Positions 53,577 to 61,321 are shown, counted from the first letter of the stretch. The stretch: DNA of 64,000 bases from an uncultured Holophagae bacterium (GCA_963754985.1 CAVWIJ010000012.1:514249-578248), one strand, 5' to 3'. A program made the numbers and translations. The notes: generated from the letters alone by a model not told the origin.

Positions 53577-54360
53577 TCAATCTGCCCGGAAGCTCGTCTC
53601 GGACAGGTCCTCCTGCCGGACCTCAGGGTCGCTCAACACGCCTCCGGTAAGCGTGATGTCGAAAACCTGGCTGAAGGCCTCGAGGACGGCGTGCTCGAGC
53701 TCGGGGAGCGGGCAGGGGCGGCCGAGCTGGTCGGCCATGGTCGTCACGCTGGCGCGCAGGCTGCGGTCGTCGGACAGGCCCATCGAGCCGGCCTGGAGGC
53801 GGCCGTCCCAGTCGAGCAGGATCGCGCCGTGCTGGAGCACCGCGCCGCCGTGGGCGCGCATCGCCGAGCCGATCAGCTTGCGGCCGCCGACCACCACCTC
53901 GCCGCCGGCCGGGGCCTCGAAGCAGGGGATGGCCGAGGCCGGGCTCGGCAGCTGGAGGTTGACCTCGCCCGGGGTCAGCTCGGCCGCGATCCCGAGGCTG
54001 CGGCAGGCCGCGACCAGCGGCTCGCAGATCCGACGGTAGGCGTCCTGCAGGGCGCGCGGGAGCGGCCCCTCGCCGAGCGGCGCGACCACCGCGTAGGTCA
54101 GCTCGAGGTGGTGGAGCAGGGCGCGGCCGCCGGTCGGCCGCCGCACCACGTCGATGCCGTGGGCGCGGCAGAAGGCGAGGTCGGCCGCCTCTGGACCCTG
54201 GTGCCGGCCGAGCGACAGGCACGGCGGGTCCCAGCCGTAGAGGCGCAGGGTCGGCGGCGCGTCGCCGTGGGCGACCGCCTCGAGCATCGCCACGTCGCGC
54301 GCCATGTTGCGCGCCCCGGGGAGCTCGCCGTCGCGGATGAGCCGCCAGCGTCGCCGTCAT
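53577..54360 (-). CDS. Lipoate-protein ligase / octanoyltransferase family protein (BPL_LplA_LipB) with a probable N-terminal frame break
   Basis: Track ORF 53577..54305 shows LRLYGWDPPCLSLGRHQ, VVRRPTGGRALLHH and GRKLIGSAMR. The upstream in-frame WRLIRDGELPGARN has no start codon, and the ATG at 54360 (MTATL) is one frame off. Confidence 0.7.
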
Positions 54361-54573
54361 CCCGAGCACTCTAGCGCGTCACGGTTCCCCCGCAACCCGG
54401 CCATCTTGAGGAAAGCCTGGTGGTCCGGCAGCTCGGACACCGATTCCGCAACTTTTCCTGAACTTTTCCTCACGACTTTCAGCCCGCCGGGGCCCAGGTT
54501 ATGAGCGTCTCGAGGCGCTGCCGCGCGAGGAGCGCGGTTGAGCAGACCTCTCGGGGCTCGAAAGGGGGAGACC

Positions 54574-55625
54574 ATGAAGCGTTCGAGGCTGGCGATTGCA
54601 TCACTGTGGCCGCTCGGCCTGGCCCTCGCCGTCCTGCTGGCGGCGGGCACGGCTGAGGGCCAGACACCCTGGACCAAGGATCCGGCCAACCCGGTGCTCG
54701 AGGCGGGCGATCCTGGCGCGTGGGACCAGGGCGGTGTCGTGTCCGGCGCCGTCCTCTTCGACGGATCGACCTACCACATGTGGTACGCGGGCCTGCGCAC
54801 AATCCCTCCGGTGTGGCCTGACGCCGACATCGGCTACGCCTGGTCGCAGGATGGGGTGACCTGGAACAGGCACCCGGACCCCGTGCTCGTGCGAGATGGC
54901 ACCTGGGACTCCGCCGGGATCTGCCCGGGGGCGGTCGTGTGGGACGGCGCCCTCTATCACATGTGGTACGTCGGCGGCACGTCGTCGAGCTTCACGCAGA
55001 CCGGCTACGCCACCTCGCCGGACGGGGTGACGTGGACGCCGTACGGAGGCAACCCGGTGCTCACTGGGGATCCGGCGGCTGGGACGAGGCCAAGGCGGAC
55101 ATCCACTGCGGTGATCGCCGATGGGGGGACCTACCTCGCCTGGTACAACGGCTGTCCCGCCGCCGGATCGCCGGGATGCGCAGGGTTATGCCACCTCACC
55201 GGACGGGGTGGTCTGGGACAAACACCCGGATCCGGTCTTGTGGCCGCTCGGGTATGGATGGGACGGCGACGACGTGCAAAACGCGGCCGTAGAGTTCGAC
55301 GGCACCTACCACATGTGGTACCGCGGCTTCGGGTCCGTGGCTCCAGATCGGCCACGCGGCGTCGAGGACGGCGTCGACTGGGTCCGGCAGCCGGCGAACG
55401 CACCGGTGCTCGAACTGCGGCCAGGCTGGAGCCTGGGACCGCGGGGGAGTGGACATGCCTCAGGTGGCCCTGATTGGGGACACCGCCCACATGTGGTACA
55501 CGGGCTGGGTCGGCGGCCTGCAGTCGATCGCGATCGGCCACGCCACGGCCCCGCTCCCGTTGCCGATGTTCGTCGACGGCTTCGAGTCCGGCGACACCTC
55601 GGCCTGGTCCCTGACCGTGCCATAG
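54574..55625 (+). pseudogene. Exported five-bladed beta-propeller glycosidase-like protein (GH43/GH130/DUF377-like) with at least 4 frame changes as assembled
   Basis: The ATG at 54574 follows AAAGGGGGAG and is followed by a signal peptide. The blade unit recurs: DPANPVL..G..GAWD..GV..GAV.FDGSTYHMWY, SQDGVTWNRHPDPVL, SPDGVTWTPYGGNPVL, SPDGVVWDKHPDPVL, FDGTYHMWY and GDTAHMWY. The stop is at 55623-55625. Confidence 0.5.
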
Positions 55626-55833
55626 GTCGCGATGCAGGCGACCTCGACTCGCATCCCGGCACTCGGCCGAGTGCCGGGATGCTCGCTCGGGGTAACGGCG
55701 GACGAGGGTTGCACTCGGGGGTCAACCGCACTGCGGCCCGAGGGGTTTGCCGATGGCGGAGATCATCCGGTTCCCGCGCGTTCGTGCCGGGCGAGGCGGG
55801 CCCGTCCGCCCGGCGCGTCCCCTCGCCCCGAGA

Positions 55834-55839
55834 TATAAT
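55834..55839 (+). promoter_or_regulatory. Candidate -10 box (TATAAT) 9 nt upstream of the STAND gene ATG, suggesting a leaderless or near-leaderless transcript
   Basis: An exact TATAAT in an otherwise roughly 70% GC context. There is no Shine-Dalgarno between it and the ATG at 55849, and no convincing -35 box. Confidence 0.25.
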
Positions 55840-55848
55840 CGCGACAGA

Positions 55849-58800
55849 ATGGCCACCAGAACAGAGAGCATCACCGAGGCCGGTGCTCGGTTTTGCGTCG
55901 GCGACTGGTTCGTCGAGCCGAGCCTCAACCGGATCTCGCGCGGCAGCGTCGCGACCCAGGTCGAACGCAAGGCCATGGACGTCCTGGTCTATCTCGCCGG
56001 GCGAGCCGGGGAGGTCGTGGACCGGCGGGAGCTCCAGGACGCGATCTGGGAGACCGAGTTCGTCTCCTACAACACGGTCGCAGCGCGGATCTACGAGCTC
56101 CGCGAGGCCCTCGAGGATGACGCGAAGGCCCCCCGCTACATCGAGACCATTCCCAAGCGCGGCTACCGGCTGATCGCGACGGTCCGCTTCAGCGAAGTGC
56201 CGGAGCCTGACGCCGGCGTGCTCGCGGAGTCGCTGCGCGAGCAGCCCGACGAGCGGTCGCCGTACCCGGGGCTCGAGCCGTTCACCGACGTCGACGCCGA
56301 GGACTTCTTCGGCCGCGAGGCCGAGATCGCGGCGCTGTGGCGCAAGATCGCGAGCCGCCGGCTGCTGGCGGTGGTCGGGCCCCTCCGGCGCGGGCAAGAG
56401 CTCGCTGGTGCGGGCCGGGGTGGTCGCCAGGGCGCCGCCGGGTTGGCGGGCGGTGGTCTGCCAGCCCGGCGAGGATCCCTTCCTGGCCGTGGCGAGGGCG
56501 CTGGCGCCGGACGTGGTGGGCGACGCCGAGGAGATGCGGCGGCTGCTGGCGTTCCACGACCTCGACGTGGCGCTGGCCGTGGCGGCGCGGTGGCGGGGCC
56601 GCTGGGACGAGGCGCTGCTCGTGGTCGACCAGTTCGAGGAGCTCTTCACCCTCAACCCGGAGCCGGCGCGGGAGCGCTTCGCCGAGCTGCTGCGGCGGCT
56701 GGTGGACGCGGCCGGGATCCACGTCGTGCTGGTGCTGCGGGACGACTTCCTGCTCGACTGCCACCGCCACCGGGAGCTCGAGCCGATCTTCAGCGATCTG
56801 ACTCCGGTCGGACCGCCGGCAGGCAGGGAGCTGCGGCGGGCGCTGACCGAGCCGGCGGCGAGGCGGCTCTACGGCTTCGAGAGCGAGTCGATGGTCGACG
56901 AGATGGTGGGGGAGGTGGAGGCGGAGCGGGGGGCGCTGCCGCTGCTCGCCTTCGCGGTGTCGCGGCTGTGGGAGCTGCGGGATCGGGAGCGACGGCTGCT
57001 GACGCGGGAGGCGTACGAGCGGATCGGCGGGGTCGTCGGGGCGCTGGCGCAGCACGCGGAGGCGACGCTGGAGAGGATCGGACGCGAGCGGCTGCCGATC
57101 GTGCGCGAGCTGTTCCGCAACCTGGTGACGGCGCAGGGGACGCGGGCGGTGCGCGAGTGGGACGAGCTTCTCTCCGTGTTTGCCGATTCGCGACGCGAAT
57201 CGGCCCGCGAGGTGCTGCGGGCGCTCATCGACGCGCGGCTGCTGACCTCGTTCGAGGACGACGCGGCCGAAGGGTCTGCTGGAGGGGCAGGCCACAGAGT
57301 CGAGATCGTGCACGAGTCGCTGCTGCGGGCCTGGCCGCGGCTCGTGCGCTGGCAGACCCAGGATGCCGACGCTGTCCAGCTCCGCGACCAGCTCCGCCAG
57401 GCGGCGCGGACCTGGGACGAGCGGGGGCGGCCCGACGACCTGCTGTGGAGCGGTTCCTCGTTCCAGGAGTACGCAGCTGTGGCGCGCCCGCTACCCGGGC
57501 GGGCTCACCGAGCTCGAGGAGGCCTTCGCTGCCGCCATGACCTCGCTCGCGACTCGCCGCCGTCGCCGTCGCCGGATCGCCGCAACGATCATCGTCGTCT
57601 TCCTCGCTGCGGTAGCGATCGTGCTGTTCGCGCTCTGGCGCCGGAGCGTGCACGAGACCCGCCGAGCCGAGGCGGCAAAGCTGTTGGCCCTCGCCCAGGC
57701 GCGGCTGGTCGACGACCCGACCGAGGCGCTGGCCCTGACCACGGCGAGCCTGGAGGTCGCCGACACGCGGGAGGCGCGCGAGTTCGTGATGCGGGCCCTG
57801 TGGGCCGCGCCGCCGGCCCTCGAGCTCGAGGTGGAGACCGCGCTGGAGCGCAGGGAGGTGAGCTTCAGCCCGGACGGCCGACACGTCGCCGTGGCCGGTA
57901 CCGTGCCCGAGGTGCGGGTGTGGTCGGACGACGGACAGGGACCGATCCGGCTCGGCGGTCACTCCACCAAACCACCGAACATCGCACTCTGGGCGGCGGA
58001 TGATCTCGTCGTCACCGCGGAGGGCGGCGGCGATCAACGGCTCGCGTTCGGCGATCGAGCGAGGCTGTGGTCGATCCCTGACGGCCGGCTCCTGCGCACC
58101 ATCGAGCTCGGCACGCCGGCGCTCTGGTACGTCGGGCCCCGGCGCCTGTTCGCCCAGATCGAGCAGGGCGAGGGGGCGCAGCGCCGCATGGAGCTCAGGT
58201 CCTGGCGGCTGCCGGATGGCTCTGAGGAGCTGCTCGACAGTCTGTCCCCCGCCGCGCTCGCCGGCATTTCCGACCTCGTCGCCGCTCCGGACGGCTCGGG
58301 CTGGGTGGTGGCGAGGGACAGCGAGTTGCTCCTCCGCCCGTTCGACGGTGGCCGGCCGGAGAGGCGGCTCGAGGTGCTCGGTGCGGCGCCGTACGCGGTG
58401 CCCTACGGGGCGGAGAGCGTTCTCGTCGAGGACCAGGCCGGCGCCCTGCGGCTGTGGAATTTCGGCGGTGAGGCGCCTGGGCGATCCTGGTCGATCCAGC
58501 GTCCGGCCGCCGCCACGAAGAGCCTCCCCGACTGGCAGGGACGCCGGGTCGCGCGCCTTGGTCCGGACAAGCAGTCACTCCAGGTGTGGGAGCTTGGCGG
58601 CCTGCCCGGGTCGAGGCCCCTCGAGCTGCGGCGCAGCGGCTTCTGGTACGACCCGAACTTCGCGTTCCACCCGGGGGGCTCCTGGTGCGCCGCGACCACC
58701 CACGTCGAGAAGCGCCTCACGATGTGGCCGATCGCACGGCCATATCCCAGCGTTCTCGAGGGCTTCGAGTTCCCGCGCTACCGCAAGCCGCTCGCCTTCA

Positions 58801-59816
58801 GCCCCGACAGCCAGTGGCTCGCCGTCGGCTGGGACGGGGGCGTCCGGCTGCTGCCGGTGCGAGGCGGAGATCCCGCCGCGGTGCGAGAGCTGAGCCTGCC
58901 GATCGACGGCGCCGGCTCCGACATCCGCTTCGACCTCGAGGGTCGTTTTCTCTTCGTGGTGGCCATGGTCGACGCCTGGGTCGCGCCGCTCGACGGCGGA
59001 CCGGCCCGTCTGGTGGTTTCCGCGGTCGACGAGCGCCAGATCGAGCAGGGCGCGATCTCGCCCACCGGCAGGCGGGTCGCGAGCGGCTACTTCATGGGCC
59101 AGGGCCCGTTCGAGCTGTACGTCGTCGATGTCGCCACCGGCGCCCGCACCGCCTTCAACCTTCCTTGGATCGGAGACGTGTCCGAGCGAGAGGCCGGCAT
59201 CATCAGCCCGGAGTTTCTGGACGAGGAGACCCTCCTGACCATGGGCGGGGGCGGCCTCCGGCGCTGGGACCTCGCCACGGGCGAGCAGGAGCTCATGGTG
59301 GCGAACGACGGTCGGAGGTGGATGGACGCGAGCCCGAGCGCCGGCCTCGCAGTCGCCTGGGGTATGGGCGCGGACCTCGCTCCGCCCGTCGAGCTGATCG
59401 ACCTCGCCGCCTGGACGAGCCGGCCGCTTCCGGGCTTCGGCGGCGACGTCGAGTGGGTGGACCTCGATCCCTCGGGGACGGTCGTGGCGGCGGGCAGCAC
59501 CGACGGCACGATCCGGGTCGCCCGCCTCGACGGCGGCGAGCCGCAGCTGCTGCTCGGACACGCGGGATCCGTGACCCAGGTGGCCATCTCCCCTGACCTG
59601 CGCTGGCTGGCCTCGGCCGGCGCGGACAACACGCTCCGCCTGTGGCCGATGCCGGACCTGTCGAAACCGCCGCTGCACACCCTGCCCCACGACGAGCTGC
59701 TGGCCAAGCTCCACTCGCTGACCAACCTGCGCGCCGTGCGCGACCCCGCCTCCGACACCGGCTGGACGATCGAGCTCGGCCCCTTCCCCGGTTGGCGCGA
59801 AGTCCCCACCTGGTGA
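55849..59816 (+). CDS. wHTH (OmpR/CadC-type) - STAND P-loop NTPase - TM helix - WD40/beta-propeller protein of about 1320 aa with two frame breaks
   Basis: Track ORFs 55747.. (f1), 56408.. (f2) and 57363..59816 (f3) are joined at about 56380 and about 57475. The wHTH reads VERKAMDVLVYLAGRAGEVVDRRELQDAIW...IETIPKRGYRL. Walker A is restored as VVGPSGAGKSSLVRAG, and Walker B is LLVVDQFEELF. The TM helix is IAATIIVVFLAAVAIVLFALW. A terminal WD40 repeat reads LLGHAGSVTQVAISPDLRWLASAGADNTLRLWPM. Confidence 0.7.
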
Positions 59817-59970
59817 GCCGAAGATCACAATGAGCCCGCCTGGCGCTGCGGGATTGCTTGAGCGGTCGTCCGCTTTCGGGCGTCAGGCAGTGTCCCTCGG
59901 ATAGATTGGGACTTCGGACGGTTGCGCTCGAGGGTCCGAGCCGAGCCGCCCGAACGAGGAGCGAGAAGAG

Positions 59971-60474
59971 GTGGCTTCACTTCCTGACGTCTTTGGGGTG
60001 CTCAATGAAATGAAGGCCGAAGGCGTCGTCGAGGATTATGCCCTCGGTGGTGCGATGGCGGTTCTCTTCTACGCTGAGCCGACGCGGACCTACGACCTCG
60101 GTGTTTTTGTGATCCTGCCTCCTTCCGACCAGCCGATCGTCACCCTGACACCGGTCTACGCTTGGTTGCGCGCACGCGGCTTTGAGGCGCACGCCGAGCA
60201 CGTGCTGATCCACGGCGTACCGGTTCAGCTCATTCCGGCGTACAACGAGCTCGTGGAAGAGGCGATCACGGCAGCCCGAAATCACGACTACGACGACGTG
60301 ACGGTGCGGGTGTGCCCACCCGAGCATCTGATCGCACTCGCGCTTCAGGCCGGCGGCGGCAAGCGGCGGGAGCGGGCGCACCAGCTGCTCGAAACGGCGG
60401 ACATCGACCGTGCGCTTCTCGACGAGATCATGAGCCGCCACGGGATCCAGGGACCCTGGAGCCACGATGGGTGA
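59971..60474 (+). CDS. Nucleotidyltransferase-fold-like small protein with a degenerate catalytic motif
   Basis: Intact 167-aa ORF with a GTG start after GAGGAGCGAGAAGAG. YALGGAMAVLFYAEPTRTYDLGVFV resembles hG[GS]-x(n)-D-x-D, but the second acidic residue is Gly. Confidence 0.45.
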   Translation: MASLPDVFGVLNEMKAEGVVEDYALGGAMAVLFYAEPTRTYDLGVFVILPPSDQPIVTLTPVYAWLRARGFEAHAEHVLIHGVPVQLIPAYNELVEEAITAARNHDYDDVTVRVCPPEHLIALALQAGGGKRRERAHQLLETADIDRALLDEIMSRHGIQGPWSHDG

Positions 60475-60667
60475 CGGACCAAGCTCCCGCGGGGACCGGG
60501 TCGCGGACGTCTTCCGCGCCAAGGCGGAGTGGCACCGCCGGCAGGCGCGCCTCCCGATCAAGGAGAAGGTGCGGATCCTGCTCGAGCTGCAGCGACAGGA
60601 TCATCTCCTCCTGAAGCAGCACCGTCAGCTCGAGTGGTGGGAAGAGCCCTGGCGGATCGATCCCTGA
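60467..60667 (+). CDS. Small hypothetical protein (66 aa) overlapping the preceding gene by 8 nt
   Basis: The start overlaps the upstream stop (ATGGGTGA). The helical, charged sequence AKAEWHRRQARLPIKEKVRILLELQRQ is non-repetitive. I recognise no family. Confidence 0.4.
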   Translation: MGDGPSSRGDRVADVFRAKAEWHRRQARLPIKEKVRILLELQRQDHLLLKQHRQLEWWEEPWRIDP

Positions 60668-60707
60668 GCGACAAAGTCAATCGTCATGTCGGGGGCGAGC
60701 CGCTGCT

Positions 60708-61106
60708 CTACAAGGGGTTGAAGGTCAGGAAGGCTCTGGGAGAGATGATTGGGAGGCCCTCGAACGCCTCGAGGACGAGGAGGTCGTCGTCGCCCGTCAC
60801 CAGGCACGCAGCGCCGCATGATAAAGCGAGCGCCAGCACGGCATCGTCGTCATGGTCGCGGCACACCGGCTTTGGGAGCGGATCAGGGTTCACGATCTGA
60901 CCGACTCGACGAAGCAGGGCCACGGCCCTATCCACACGCGTTCTGTCGAATCCCAGCTTCCCGACCATCACGCCCTCGAACTCGTTGAGGATGTGAGCAC
61001 TCAGAATGAGCTCGTTGTCCCCGATGACGCGTTCGAAGACCTCCGAGCAGACACCTCGCGCGATGAAGGCGGCCACCAGCACGTTGGTGTCGAGAACGAC
61101 CCTCAT
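60708..61106 (-). CDS. vapC: PIN-domain toxin (VapC-like, PIN_3 type)
   Basis: Intact 132-aa ORF with MRVVLDTNVLVAA (first acidic residue), DHDDDAVLALAL and LVTGDDDL. It overlaps the upstream antitoxin by 4 nt. Confidence 0.8.
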   Translation of the reverse strand: MRVVLDTNVLVAAFIARGVCSEVFERVIGDNELILSAHILNEFEGVMVGKLGFDRTRVDRAVALLRRVGQIVNPDPLPKPVCRDHDDDAVLALALSCGAACLVTGDDDLLVLEAFEGLPIISPRAFLTFNPL

Positions 61107-61321
61107 GACACGCGGTCGAAGACGTCCTCGTCGGTGACGATGCCCTTTGACTCGGCCTCGATGGTCAGCTCGGCGCGCAGGGCGCGGTACTCGCGCAGCG
61201 TGAAGTACCTCTTCAGCGCATCGCGCACGACCTCGCTTCTGGTGGTCCCTTCCTCACGGCTGACCGCATCGAGTTCGTCGGTCAGCGTCTCGGGCAAGCT
61301 CACGGTGACGGCCTTTCTCAC
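61103..61321 (-). CDS. vapB: Ribbon-helix-helix (CopG-type) antitoxin
   Basis: 72-aa ORF with KAVTVSLPETLTDELDAVSREEGTTRSEVVRDALKRYF, the RHH pattern. Its stop overlaps the vapC start. Confidence 0.75.
   Translation of the reverse strand: MRKAVTVSLPETLTDELDAVSREEGTTRSEVVRDALKRYFTLREYRALRAELTIEAESKGIVTDEDVFDRVS

Follow-up and report, generated by a model that had tools for sequence, protein, structure and literature searches.

The question raised by this locus is what kind of protein is encoded at positions 55849-59816 of a 64,000 nt stretch of DNA from an uncultured Holophagae bacterium (GCA_963754985.1, CAVWIJ010000012.1:514249-578248; hereafter the window, with positions counted from its first letter), and whether that protein serves defence or transcriptional signalling. 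The region combines a winged helix-turn-helix (wHTH) DNA binding domain, an NTPase of the STAND type (signal transduction ATPases with numerous domains), a transmembrane (TM) helix and a WD40 propeller region, it is spread over three reading frames, and it is followed by toxin-antitoxin (TA) genes. The initial annotation of the window listed it as a candidate conflict or signalling system with island-like surroundings. We suggest that the gene encodes an inner membrane spanning, one-component STAND transcription regulator with an adjacent glycoside hydrolase (GH)-like gene as its target. This is the best explanation of the observations as a whole, and we hold it to be reasonably probable.

The plus strand of 55747-59816 contains three long open reading frames (ORFs), in frames 1, 2 and 3. 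Omitting a single base at each of 56383 and 57476/57477 lets the region 55849-59816 translate into 1321 aa with zero internal stops. The features concerned are as follows.

55849-59816, plus strand: the whole gene as first annotated, read through by repair and translation; 20 full length single-ORF homologs align across both junctions
56380-56383, plus strand: run of four C with the first extra base, frame 1 to frame 2; relatives have GGxCCxTCx, one base fewer
57476-57477, plus strand, inside GCAGCTGTGG (57473-57482): second extra base, frame 2 to frame 3, located by comparison with relatives

The G+C content at third codon positions (GC3) reaches 0.86-0.98 in frame 1 up to approximately 56300, in frame 2 up to approximately 57350 and in frame 3 up to 59700. 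Because it moves from frame 1 to 2 to 3 in this way, the coding signal changes frame without a gap. Skipping one C at 56380-56383 turns LLAVVGPLRRGQ into LLAVVGPSGAGKSSLVRAG and restores the Walker A motif GPSGAGKSS. At the second site the relatives read GCAGTCTGG or TCGCTGTGG, encoding EYAVW or EYSLW with one base fewer, and GCAGCTGTGG minus one base gives FQEYAVWRARYPGG, in agreement with FREYAVWRERYPGG of L001, an intact paralog in the same genome. (Labels such as L001, L011-L019 and L100 denote loci of the family; C12, C22, C23 and C32 are contigs of the window's genome.) More than 20 relatives, with 47-75% identity, encode the protein as a single ORF.

The assembly itself accounts for the broken frame. 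The genome has a size of 4.73 Mb with 70% GC, in 32 contigs. Its rpoB is found in two frames (one frame change) and its rpoC in five pieces and three frames (four changes), both at C12:230837-239167, while secA is unbroken. Since rpoB and rpoC are essential and essential genes cannot carry four frameshifts, we attribute the indels to the assembly. Frame splits also affect seven of nine nSTAND1 loci in the genome and the gene directly upstream of the STAND gene, and two indels per 4 kb correspond to the local background rate. Both frameshifts are almost certainly assembly errors, and 55849-59816 is, judging from the relatives, almost certainly one intact gene broken by two single-base insertions. 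The single polypeptide of about 1320 aa that had been proposed from the window is borne out by the repaired translation, by the continuous nSTAND1 profile described below and by the single-ORF relatives.

Two other accounts of the broken frame have to be considered. The gene could be a true pseudogene, one or both frameshifts being real in the organism. Two frame changes within 4 kb, the second of them outside any homopolymer, and the splitting of the majority of nSTAND1 paralogs in the genome, in a family of the expanded kind that often decays, weigh for decay and against an intact gene. We nevertheless consider this very improbable, given the frame changes in rpoB and rpoC, a marker gene completeness of merely 71.7% despite contigs of up to 835 kb, and a GC3 of 0.87-0.98 in the correct frame on either side of each shift, with no in-frame stops. 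The three long ORFs in three frames also suggest three separate genes, for a small wHTH protein, an NTPase and a membrane WD40 protein, an outcome that the initial annotation had allowed for. This is hardly credible: the first boundary would cut the nSTAND1 profile at position 41, in the middle of the P-loop, the second would split the conserved EYAVWRERYPGG motif, and the relatives, all single ORFs, already refute it. Programmed frameshifting was likewise rejected, as the relatives are all single-frame. It should be noted that every frame-split gene in this assembly is a suspected assembly artefact.

The architecture of the repaired protein, wHTH-nSTAND1-TM-double WD40 propeller, is near certain. 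Domain assignment by profile hidden Markov models and by structure models, made after frame repair, upheld the proposed order, with the following parts.

55957-56172, plus strand: OmpR/PhoB-type winged helix (Trans_reg_C, PF00486), residues 37-108; Pfam E 2.6e-18
56260-57475, plus strand: nSTAND1 NTPase module, residues 138-542 (Pfam PF20703); Walker A at 56377-56404, Walker B at 56615-56641
57555-57638, plus strand: stop-transfer run of seven Arg (57555-57575) and single TM helix (57576-57638, residues 576-596); hydropathy maximum 3.06
57639-57818, plus strand: helical stalk and cap, predicted extracytoplasmic, residues 597-656; AlphaFold2 (AF2) helices at residues 54-76, 80-93 and 97-109 of the modelled piece
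57819-59648, plus strand: two WD40 beta-propellers of about 14 blades, predicted periplasmic, residues 657-1266; AF2, Foldseek and Pfam WD40 (E 2e-21)
59649-59816, plus strand: conserved C-terminal tail (LRLWPMPDLSKPPLHTLPHDELLAKLHSLTNLRAVRD...GPFPGWREVPTW) and stop codon; many invariant alignment columns

The OmpR/CadC-type winged helix of the initial annotation is recovered as Trans_reg_C with 66.3 bits against a cut-off of 26.2. Its recognition helix is NTVAARIYELREAL and differs among paralogs. The domain stands at the N-terminus and Pfam finds no Response_reg receiver domain, which sets the protein apart from OmpR two-component response regulators. PF20703 matches with its positions 1-41 in the first frame (37.9 bits) and 41-378 in the second (281.4 bits, E 2.2e-83; cut-off 27.1). 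Because the profile stops and resumes at position 41, nSTAND1 runs unbroken over the first shift. PF20703 and the translation thereby confirm the STAND NTPase read from the window, with the repaired GPSGAGKSS and with LLVVDQFEE as Walker B; both motifs are invariant in 21 sequences. An AF2 model of residues 96-542 with the first shift bridged (mean predicted local distance difference test score, pLDDT, 83.5) shows a P-loop nucleotide-binding oligomerisation domain, a lid and a winged helix. Its best Foldseek matches are PABY2304, Cdc6/Orc1 and NLRP7, with TM-scores of merely 0.35-0.56.

The C-terminal 778 aa, residues 544-1321, were modelled by AF2 with 50 homologs (pLDDT 90.4, predicted template modelling score 0.87). 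In brief, the model consists of one 66-residue helix containing the TM segment, two short helices, about 14 four-stranded blades and a helix-plus-hairpin tail. Foldseek retrieves tandem WD40 proteins with it, 2ymu, Apaf-1 (3shf, 3sfz), Pwp2, Utp21 and Aip1, at E 1e-26 to 1e-18, and the propeller region of about 700 aa that had been predicted is in this way resolved into two propellers. The single TM helix stands as proposed, at residues 576-596; the Arg6 preceding it does not, as the run counts seven arginines. The stalk sequence RRAEAAKLLALAQARL..DPTEALA..ASLE is conserved in the alignment of full length wHTH forms. The tail of approximately 55 residues (59649-59813; LRLWPMPDLSKPPLHTLPHDELLAKLHSLTNLRAVRD..GPFPGW..VPTW) is the most conserved extracytoplasmic part and is common to wHTH-headed and kinase-headed forms.

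The topology is predicted to be N-in/C-out, with periplasmic propellers. All 50 of 50 full length homologs have exactly one hydrophobic window. In these homologs the net charge of the 15 flanking residues averages +6.9 on the N side and +1.6 on the C side. The positive-inside rule, together with the DNA and nucleotide binding role of the N-terminal part, leads us to place the propellers outside the cytoplasm. The arrangement put forward earlier, a sensor outside and an NTPase with DNA binding output inside, is supported by this prediction.

The conserved neighbour of the STAND gene lies directly upstream, and a candidate operator lies in front of that neighbour.

54574-55625, plus strand: secreted five-bladed GH130/GH32-like (Asp-box) beta-propeller gene; found by tblastn of the relatives L014 and L016
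54444-54480, plus strand: candidate operator, direct repeats of 11-bp period TTCCGCAACTTTTCCTGAACTTTTCCTCACGACTTTC; found by a repeat search at spacing 11

In tblastn, the intact relative from L014 (354 aa, 56% identity) and that from L016 match frames 1, 2 and 3 in order, which shows that this gene is also split over three frames. The product has approximately 350 aa, five Asp-box blades and the signal peptide MKRSRLAIASLWPLGLALAVLLAAGTAEGQ. The intact relatives match Pfam GH130 with 28.9 bits (cut-off 26) and GH32N with 31.7 bits (cut-off 22.1), profile matches from which an enzyme activity is putative, and their matches in the PDB, 3qc2, 4ak7 and 7fip, are enzymes of the GH130/GH117/GH43 type. 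The proteins from the window (approximately 55570-55622), L014 and L016 end in a conserved F-x-D-G-F-E-x-G-D-T-x-x-W-S-x-T-V-P.

Four of eight distinct wHTH-headed loci (the window, L014, L016 and L017) have the GH-like gene directly upstream in the same orientation. The STAND protein of L016 is just 44% identical to that of the window, yet it has the same neighbour. None of approximately 33 kinase-headed loci has a GH-like gene. In the window's genome all four detectable GH-like copies (on C12, C22, C23 and C32) stand immediately upstream of a wHTH-nSTAND1 gene, and four of the five wHTH-headed copies are preceded by one. Sampling 119 genomes of the order gave 30 GH-like loci, 11 of which, from several genera, have a wHTH gene next in line; a 5-kb extension of 12 GH-like loci revealed just one further wHTH neighbour, L131. 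The pairing is, by these gene neighbourhoods, recurrent but facultative. That the conserved neighbour is the upstream secreted GH-like gene points to transcriptional signalling.

The two genes have the appearance of a duplicated two-gene cassette. C22, C23 and C32 are short contigs (28, 13 and 7 kb), each with one GH-like plus wHTH-nSTAND1 cassette. The C22 and C23 promoters are nearly identical, and the cassettes of C22, C23 and C32 may have arisen by recent duplication, or may represent strain variants at which the assembly broke.

OmpR/PhoB and Streptomyces antibiotic regulatory protein (SARP) winged helices bind tandem direct repeats with 10-11-bp spacing that overlap the -35 region. The candidate operator lies about 95-130 nt before the GH-like start codon. 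The window has a single copy of the element ACTTTTCC-N3-ACTTTTCC, as has the whole 4.73-Mb genome, and none of 100 shuffled versions reproduced it. A matching layout, with two locus-specific 11-bp repeats, a conserved CACGACTTTC-like third unit, approximately 20 nt and CCCAnnTTG, is found upstream of the GH-like genes of L014, L017, L100, L105, L108, L111, C22, C23 and C32. The recognition helix, NT[VIL]xxR[IV]xE, differs between cassettes, and helix classes accompany repeat classes: C22 goes with L100, L014 with L017, and L105 with L108 and L111. The association of helix class with repeat class is suggestive only. A one-to-one code between helix residues and repeats is not claimed, since C22 and C23 combine one repeat with two different helices and matching classes may reflect common descent. 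The repeat motif would hint at autoregulation if it also preceded the regulator gene; a search there did not find it.

STAND regulators such as MalT and AfsR act by nucleotide-dependent oligomerisation. We suggest a mechanism along these lines. The OmpR/PhoB-type winged helix and the nSTAND1 NTPase would be cytoplasmic, a single helix would cross the membrane, and the stalk would hold the two WD40 propellers in the periplasm. A periplasmic ligand would bind or cluster the propellers, and the NTPase modules on the cytoplasmic side would be drawn together by the continuous TM helix. Oligomerisation that depends on nucleotide, as in MalT, AfsR or Apaf-1, would then align several winged helices, which could occupy the three 11-bp-period repeats at 54444-54480 and turn on the neighbouring gene for the secreted GH130/GH32-like propeller. 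We give this target and this activation mechanism, drawn by analogy, about an even chance.

More tentatively, and with somewhat less than even odds, we extend the idea to the family: the wHTH-headed nSTAND1-TM-WD40 proteins of Acidobacteriota may be trans-envelope activators resembling NLRs (nucleotide-binding, leucine-rich repeat receptors), acting as ATP-driven oligomers on copy-specific 11-bp repeats, each switching its own GH-like gene, with a glycan or the product of the partner enzyme as possible ligand. If true, they would be a functional parallel to the hybrid two-component and anti-sigma regulators of Bacteroides polysaccharide utilisation loci. NLR-like STAND ATPases are viewed as cytoplasmic switches touched by their sensor, and this family of thousands is predicted to put the sensor across a membrane. 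With a defined DNA binding head, a candidate 11-bp-repeat operator and a single adjacent target gene, the cassette is a simple test system; it could reveal the way in which such receptors signal, and whether the task of the family is to sense nutrients or the envelope rather than to defend the cell.

Downstream of the STAND gene the window encodes four small genes.

59971-60667, plus strand: overlapping gene pair of 167 aa and 66 aa (59971-60474 and 60467-60667), outside the system; Pfam DUF2204 at E 0.04 only
60708-61321, minus strand: VapBC-type pair, PIN at 60708-61106 and ribbon-helix-helix (RHH) at 61103-61321; PIN_3 E 7.5e-15, RHH_1 E 3.7e-8

They had been described as two TA cassettes (59971-61321) that give the region an island-like character. 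This holds for the PIN/RHH pair, whose genes overlap by 4 nt (61103-61106) in the layout of a VapBC type II system, with putative toxin activity. It does not hold for the 167-aa and 66-aa genes, in which Pfam finds no significant family, DUF2204 at E 0.04 being the sole match. At L011-L013, the closest ortholog, the latter pair is present with 89% and 77-79% identity, and among all loci compared the PIN/RHH pair at this locus is unique to this genome. None of the four genes occurs beyond the closest ortholog at the other loci (approximately 85 family loci including six other distinct wHTH-headed ones and approximately 70 further ones) or elsewhere in the genome. GC drops to 0.63-0.65 across the cassettes. 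In L011:12289-17121 the 66-aa gene is followed by a TonB-receptor-like gene and a different PIN/VapB pair and then by the same ABC transporter. Gene content varies between the 66-aa gene and the ABC transporter, and in this genome PIN and RHH occupy that place. PADLOC gave no significant defence hit for seven proteins; its only two matches, mad8 (E 0.0023) and HEAT-ARM_XIII (E 2.7e-07, on two WD40 repeats), were considered and neither supports a defence system. Because the TA genes are not conserved beyond the closest ortholog and PADLOC is null, we see them as local passengers in a variable spot and not as partners of the STAND gene. By comparison of neighbourhoods, the downstream TA genes are unrelated to it.

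It remains to weigh what else the protein might do. As an NLR-like nSTAND1 sensor it could turn an invader or envelope signal into a defensive transcription programme, with the TA cassettes as part of a defence island. We find this improbable. The nSTAND1 family was defined in predicted counter-invader systems, where it is fused to caspase, TIR and effector-associated domains (EADs) (PMC8195603). The family is expanded here, and its sensor diverges faster than the NTPase, as in immune receptor families; the TA genes are also near, at 150-1500 nt downstream, although as neighbours they are weak evidence for a defence island. Against these points, the outputs of this clade are a DNA binding domain or a protein kinase and no killing effector. 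Pfam finds no EAD, Death-like or effector domain, which separates the protein from the counter-invader systems of Kaur et al. 2021. The conflict and island reading has thus given way: a comparison of approximately 85 loci for the four downstream genes returned the 167-aa and 66-aa pair in the closest ortholog only, and the conserved neighbour is the secreted GH-like gene instead. Less easily set aside, though still unlikely, is a membrane spanning STAND regulator that senses another cue, such as envelope stress or a cell-cell signal, and acts on distant targets, the GH-like gene being merely co-duplicated. Half of the distinct loci lack that gene, and the kinase-headed siblings have the same sensor module and other neighbours. 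The exact repeat, found once in the genome, makes no wider regulon visible, a count that covers exact sites only and leaves degenerate ones possible. What speaks for the GH-like gene as target is that its promoter has the repeat layout expected for this class of DNA binding domain, and that repeat layout and recognition-helix classes track the cassette across genera.

The regulator with an adjacent target, which we prefer, has its own difficulties, and the following weigh against it. The wHTH-headed loci L011, L015, L018 and L019 have no GH-like neighbour, nor has one copy in this genome (C12:829653), and approximately two thirds of GH-like genes have no regulator. The GH-like/wHTH cassettes are related by descent, so that the counts are not independent, and C22 and C23 have a repeat in common with different recognition helices. 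Known STAND proteins have a sensor in direct contact with the NTPase, and no such contact is possible through a membrane; for this reason the step of coupling across the membrane is speculative. In the literature we found no experimental work on binding, expression or topology for any family member.

The start of the STAND gene has two features of its own.

55834-55839, plus strand: TATAAT, a -10-like hexamer 9 nt before the ATG at 55849, seen in the sequence
55753-55848, plus strand: in-frame sequence that may extend the N-terminus (MAEIIRFP...), its ATG at 55753 preceded by GAGGGG at a distance of 9 nt

The hexamer had been noted before, together with the lack of a Shine-Dalgarno sequence. 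Both observations hold, with no GGAGG between 55834-55839 and the ATG, and the arrangement is conserved in relatives: TA[TC]AAT or TACATT, N9 and a start codon are found in 7-8 of 8 distinct wHTH loci. In L018 this TATAAT-type-N9-start arrangement is present with non-coding upstream DNA after a terminator. TATAAT has merely 43 occurrences in the genome on both strands. Three of the four TATAAT-N9-RTG sites in the genome, plus one TACAAT-N9-GTG site, precede wHTH-nSTAND1 paralogs. A sigma-70 scan of 54300-60100 gave no two-hexamer promoter, and TATAAT has no recognisable -35. Because TATAAT-N9-start is kept in 7-8 of 8 loci, L018 included, a leaderless or nearly leaderless message is supported, and the regulator is probably transcribed from its own -10 element (TATAAT-N9-ATG).

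A conserved peptide is encoded 32-36 codons before the annotated start, and TATAAT reads as Tyr-Asn within it. The in-frame peptide, M/V-x-K-I-V-R-F-P, occurs in L011, L014, L016, L017 and L019. It lies 57, 57, 57, 57, 60 and 63 nt from TAYAAT. These distances are all divisible by three, and the differences among loci look synonymous; the two properties suggest that the upstream peptide, present in most loci, is translated, which weighs against the leaderless reading. The ORF may start 32 codons earlier, at 55753, and a long isoform and a leaderless short isoform may both be present.

The protein belongs to a common acidobacterial membrane protein family that is catalogued by architecture but experimentally unstudied. 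More than 6500 relatives scored as significant in a database search. Many are encoded in one ORF of 1320-1400 aa that combines Trans_reg_C, nSTAND1 and WD40, and the top match shows 73% identity over the full length. An alignment of 21 full length wHTH forms shows conservation of Walker A, Walker B (DQFEE), the Arg run, the hydrophobic segment, the stalk and the C-terminal tail (LRLWPMPDL..LTNLRAVRD..PFPGW..PTW); the propeller region is far more variable. Relatives within Acidobacteriota come from Holophagae, Sulfomarinibacteraceae and Vicinamibacteria, and remoter nSTAND1-WD40 proteins from Myxococcota, Chloroflexota, Actinomycetota and Cyanobacteria. The window's genome holds at least five wHTH-headed and at least three kinase-headed copies, and at least nine nSTAND1 loci. 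Both heads are joined in one protein at L034, L048 and L131, as wHTH, Ser/Thr kinase, nSTAND1, TM and WD40; the double-headed protein of L131 is located behind a GH-like gene.

Among known proteins, the kinase-headed siblings (Pkinase-nSTAND1-TM-WD40, e.g. L001) are very similar. Their NTPase is 60-65% identical, and they have the same Arg run, TM helix, stalk, double propeller and tail. They differ in a Hanks-type kinase output and in having no GH-like neighbour, whereas the window protein has a DNA binding domain. Kaur, Iyer, Burroughs and Aravind (2021, eLife, PMC8195603) named nSTAND1 as the NTPase of predicted counter-invader systems, and in their Figure 2 source data 'nSTAND1+TM+BetaPropeller' appears 278 times, the heads being caspase, kinase and 'wHTH-4stranded+TPRs'. 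Our protein resembles these in PF20703, in the order NTPase, one TM and C-terminal propeller, and in an interchangeable head. It differs from 'wHTH-4stranded+TPRs+nSTAND1+TM+BetaPropeller' in that the winged helix is fused straight to the NTPase, with no spacer of tetratricopeptide repeats (TPRs) or BTAD-like type; the source data have no entry named as a direct wHTH+nSTAND1 fusion. The context differs as well, a GH-like gene here and EAD/effector conflict loci there.

AfsR and other large SARPs of Streptomyces, and MalT of E. coli, likewise combine a DNA binding domain, a STAND NTPase and a repeat sensor, and in AfsR, too, the DNA binding part is an OmpR-type winged helix, with direct repeats at promoters as its binding sites. 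Unlike the window protein they are soluble, with NB-ARC or MalT-type NTPases, TPR/SUPR sensors and cytoplasmic ligands; MalT has a C-terminal LuxR helix-turn-helix and AfsR a BTAD domain. Pfam gave no BTAD, NB-ARC or TPR match in the window protein, which has nSTAND1, WD40 and TM instead and is in this respect no large SARP. It resembles ToxR, CadC and TcpP in that an OmpR-type winged helix stands at the N-terminus in the cytoplasm and is followed by one TM helix and a sensor in the periplasm, the topology being predicted here, and in its putative binding of DNA at the membrane. The difference is an NTPase of approximately 430 aa between winged helix and membrane, in place of a short linker, and a double-propeller sensor of 610 aa. 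Apaf-1, found by Foldseek with the sensor model, has the same succession of a STAND NTPase and two WD40 propellers, but is soluble, carries a CARD head and has a sensor that touches the NTPase directly.

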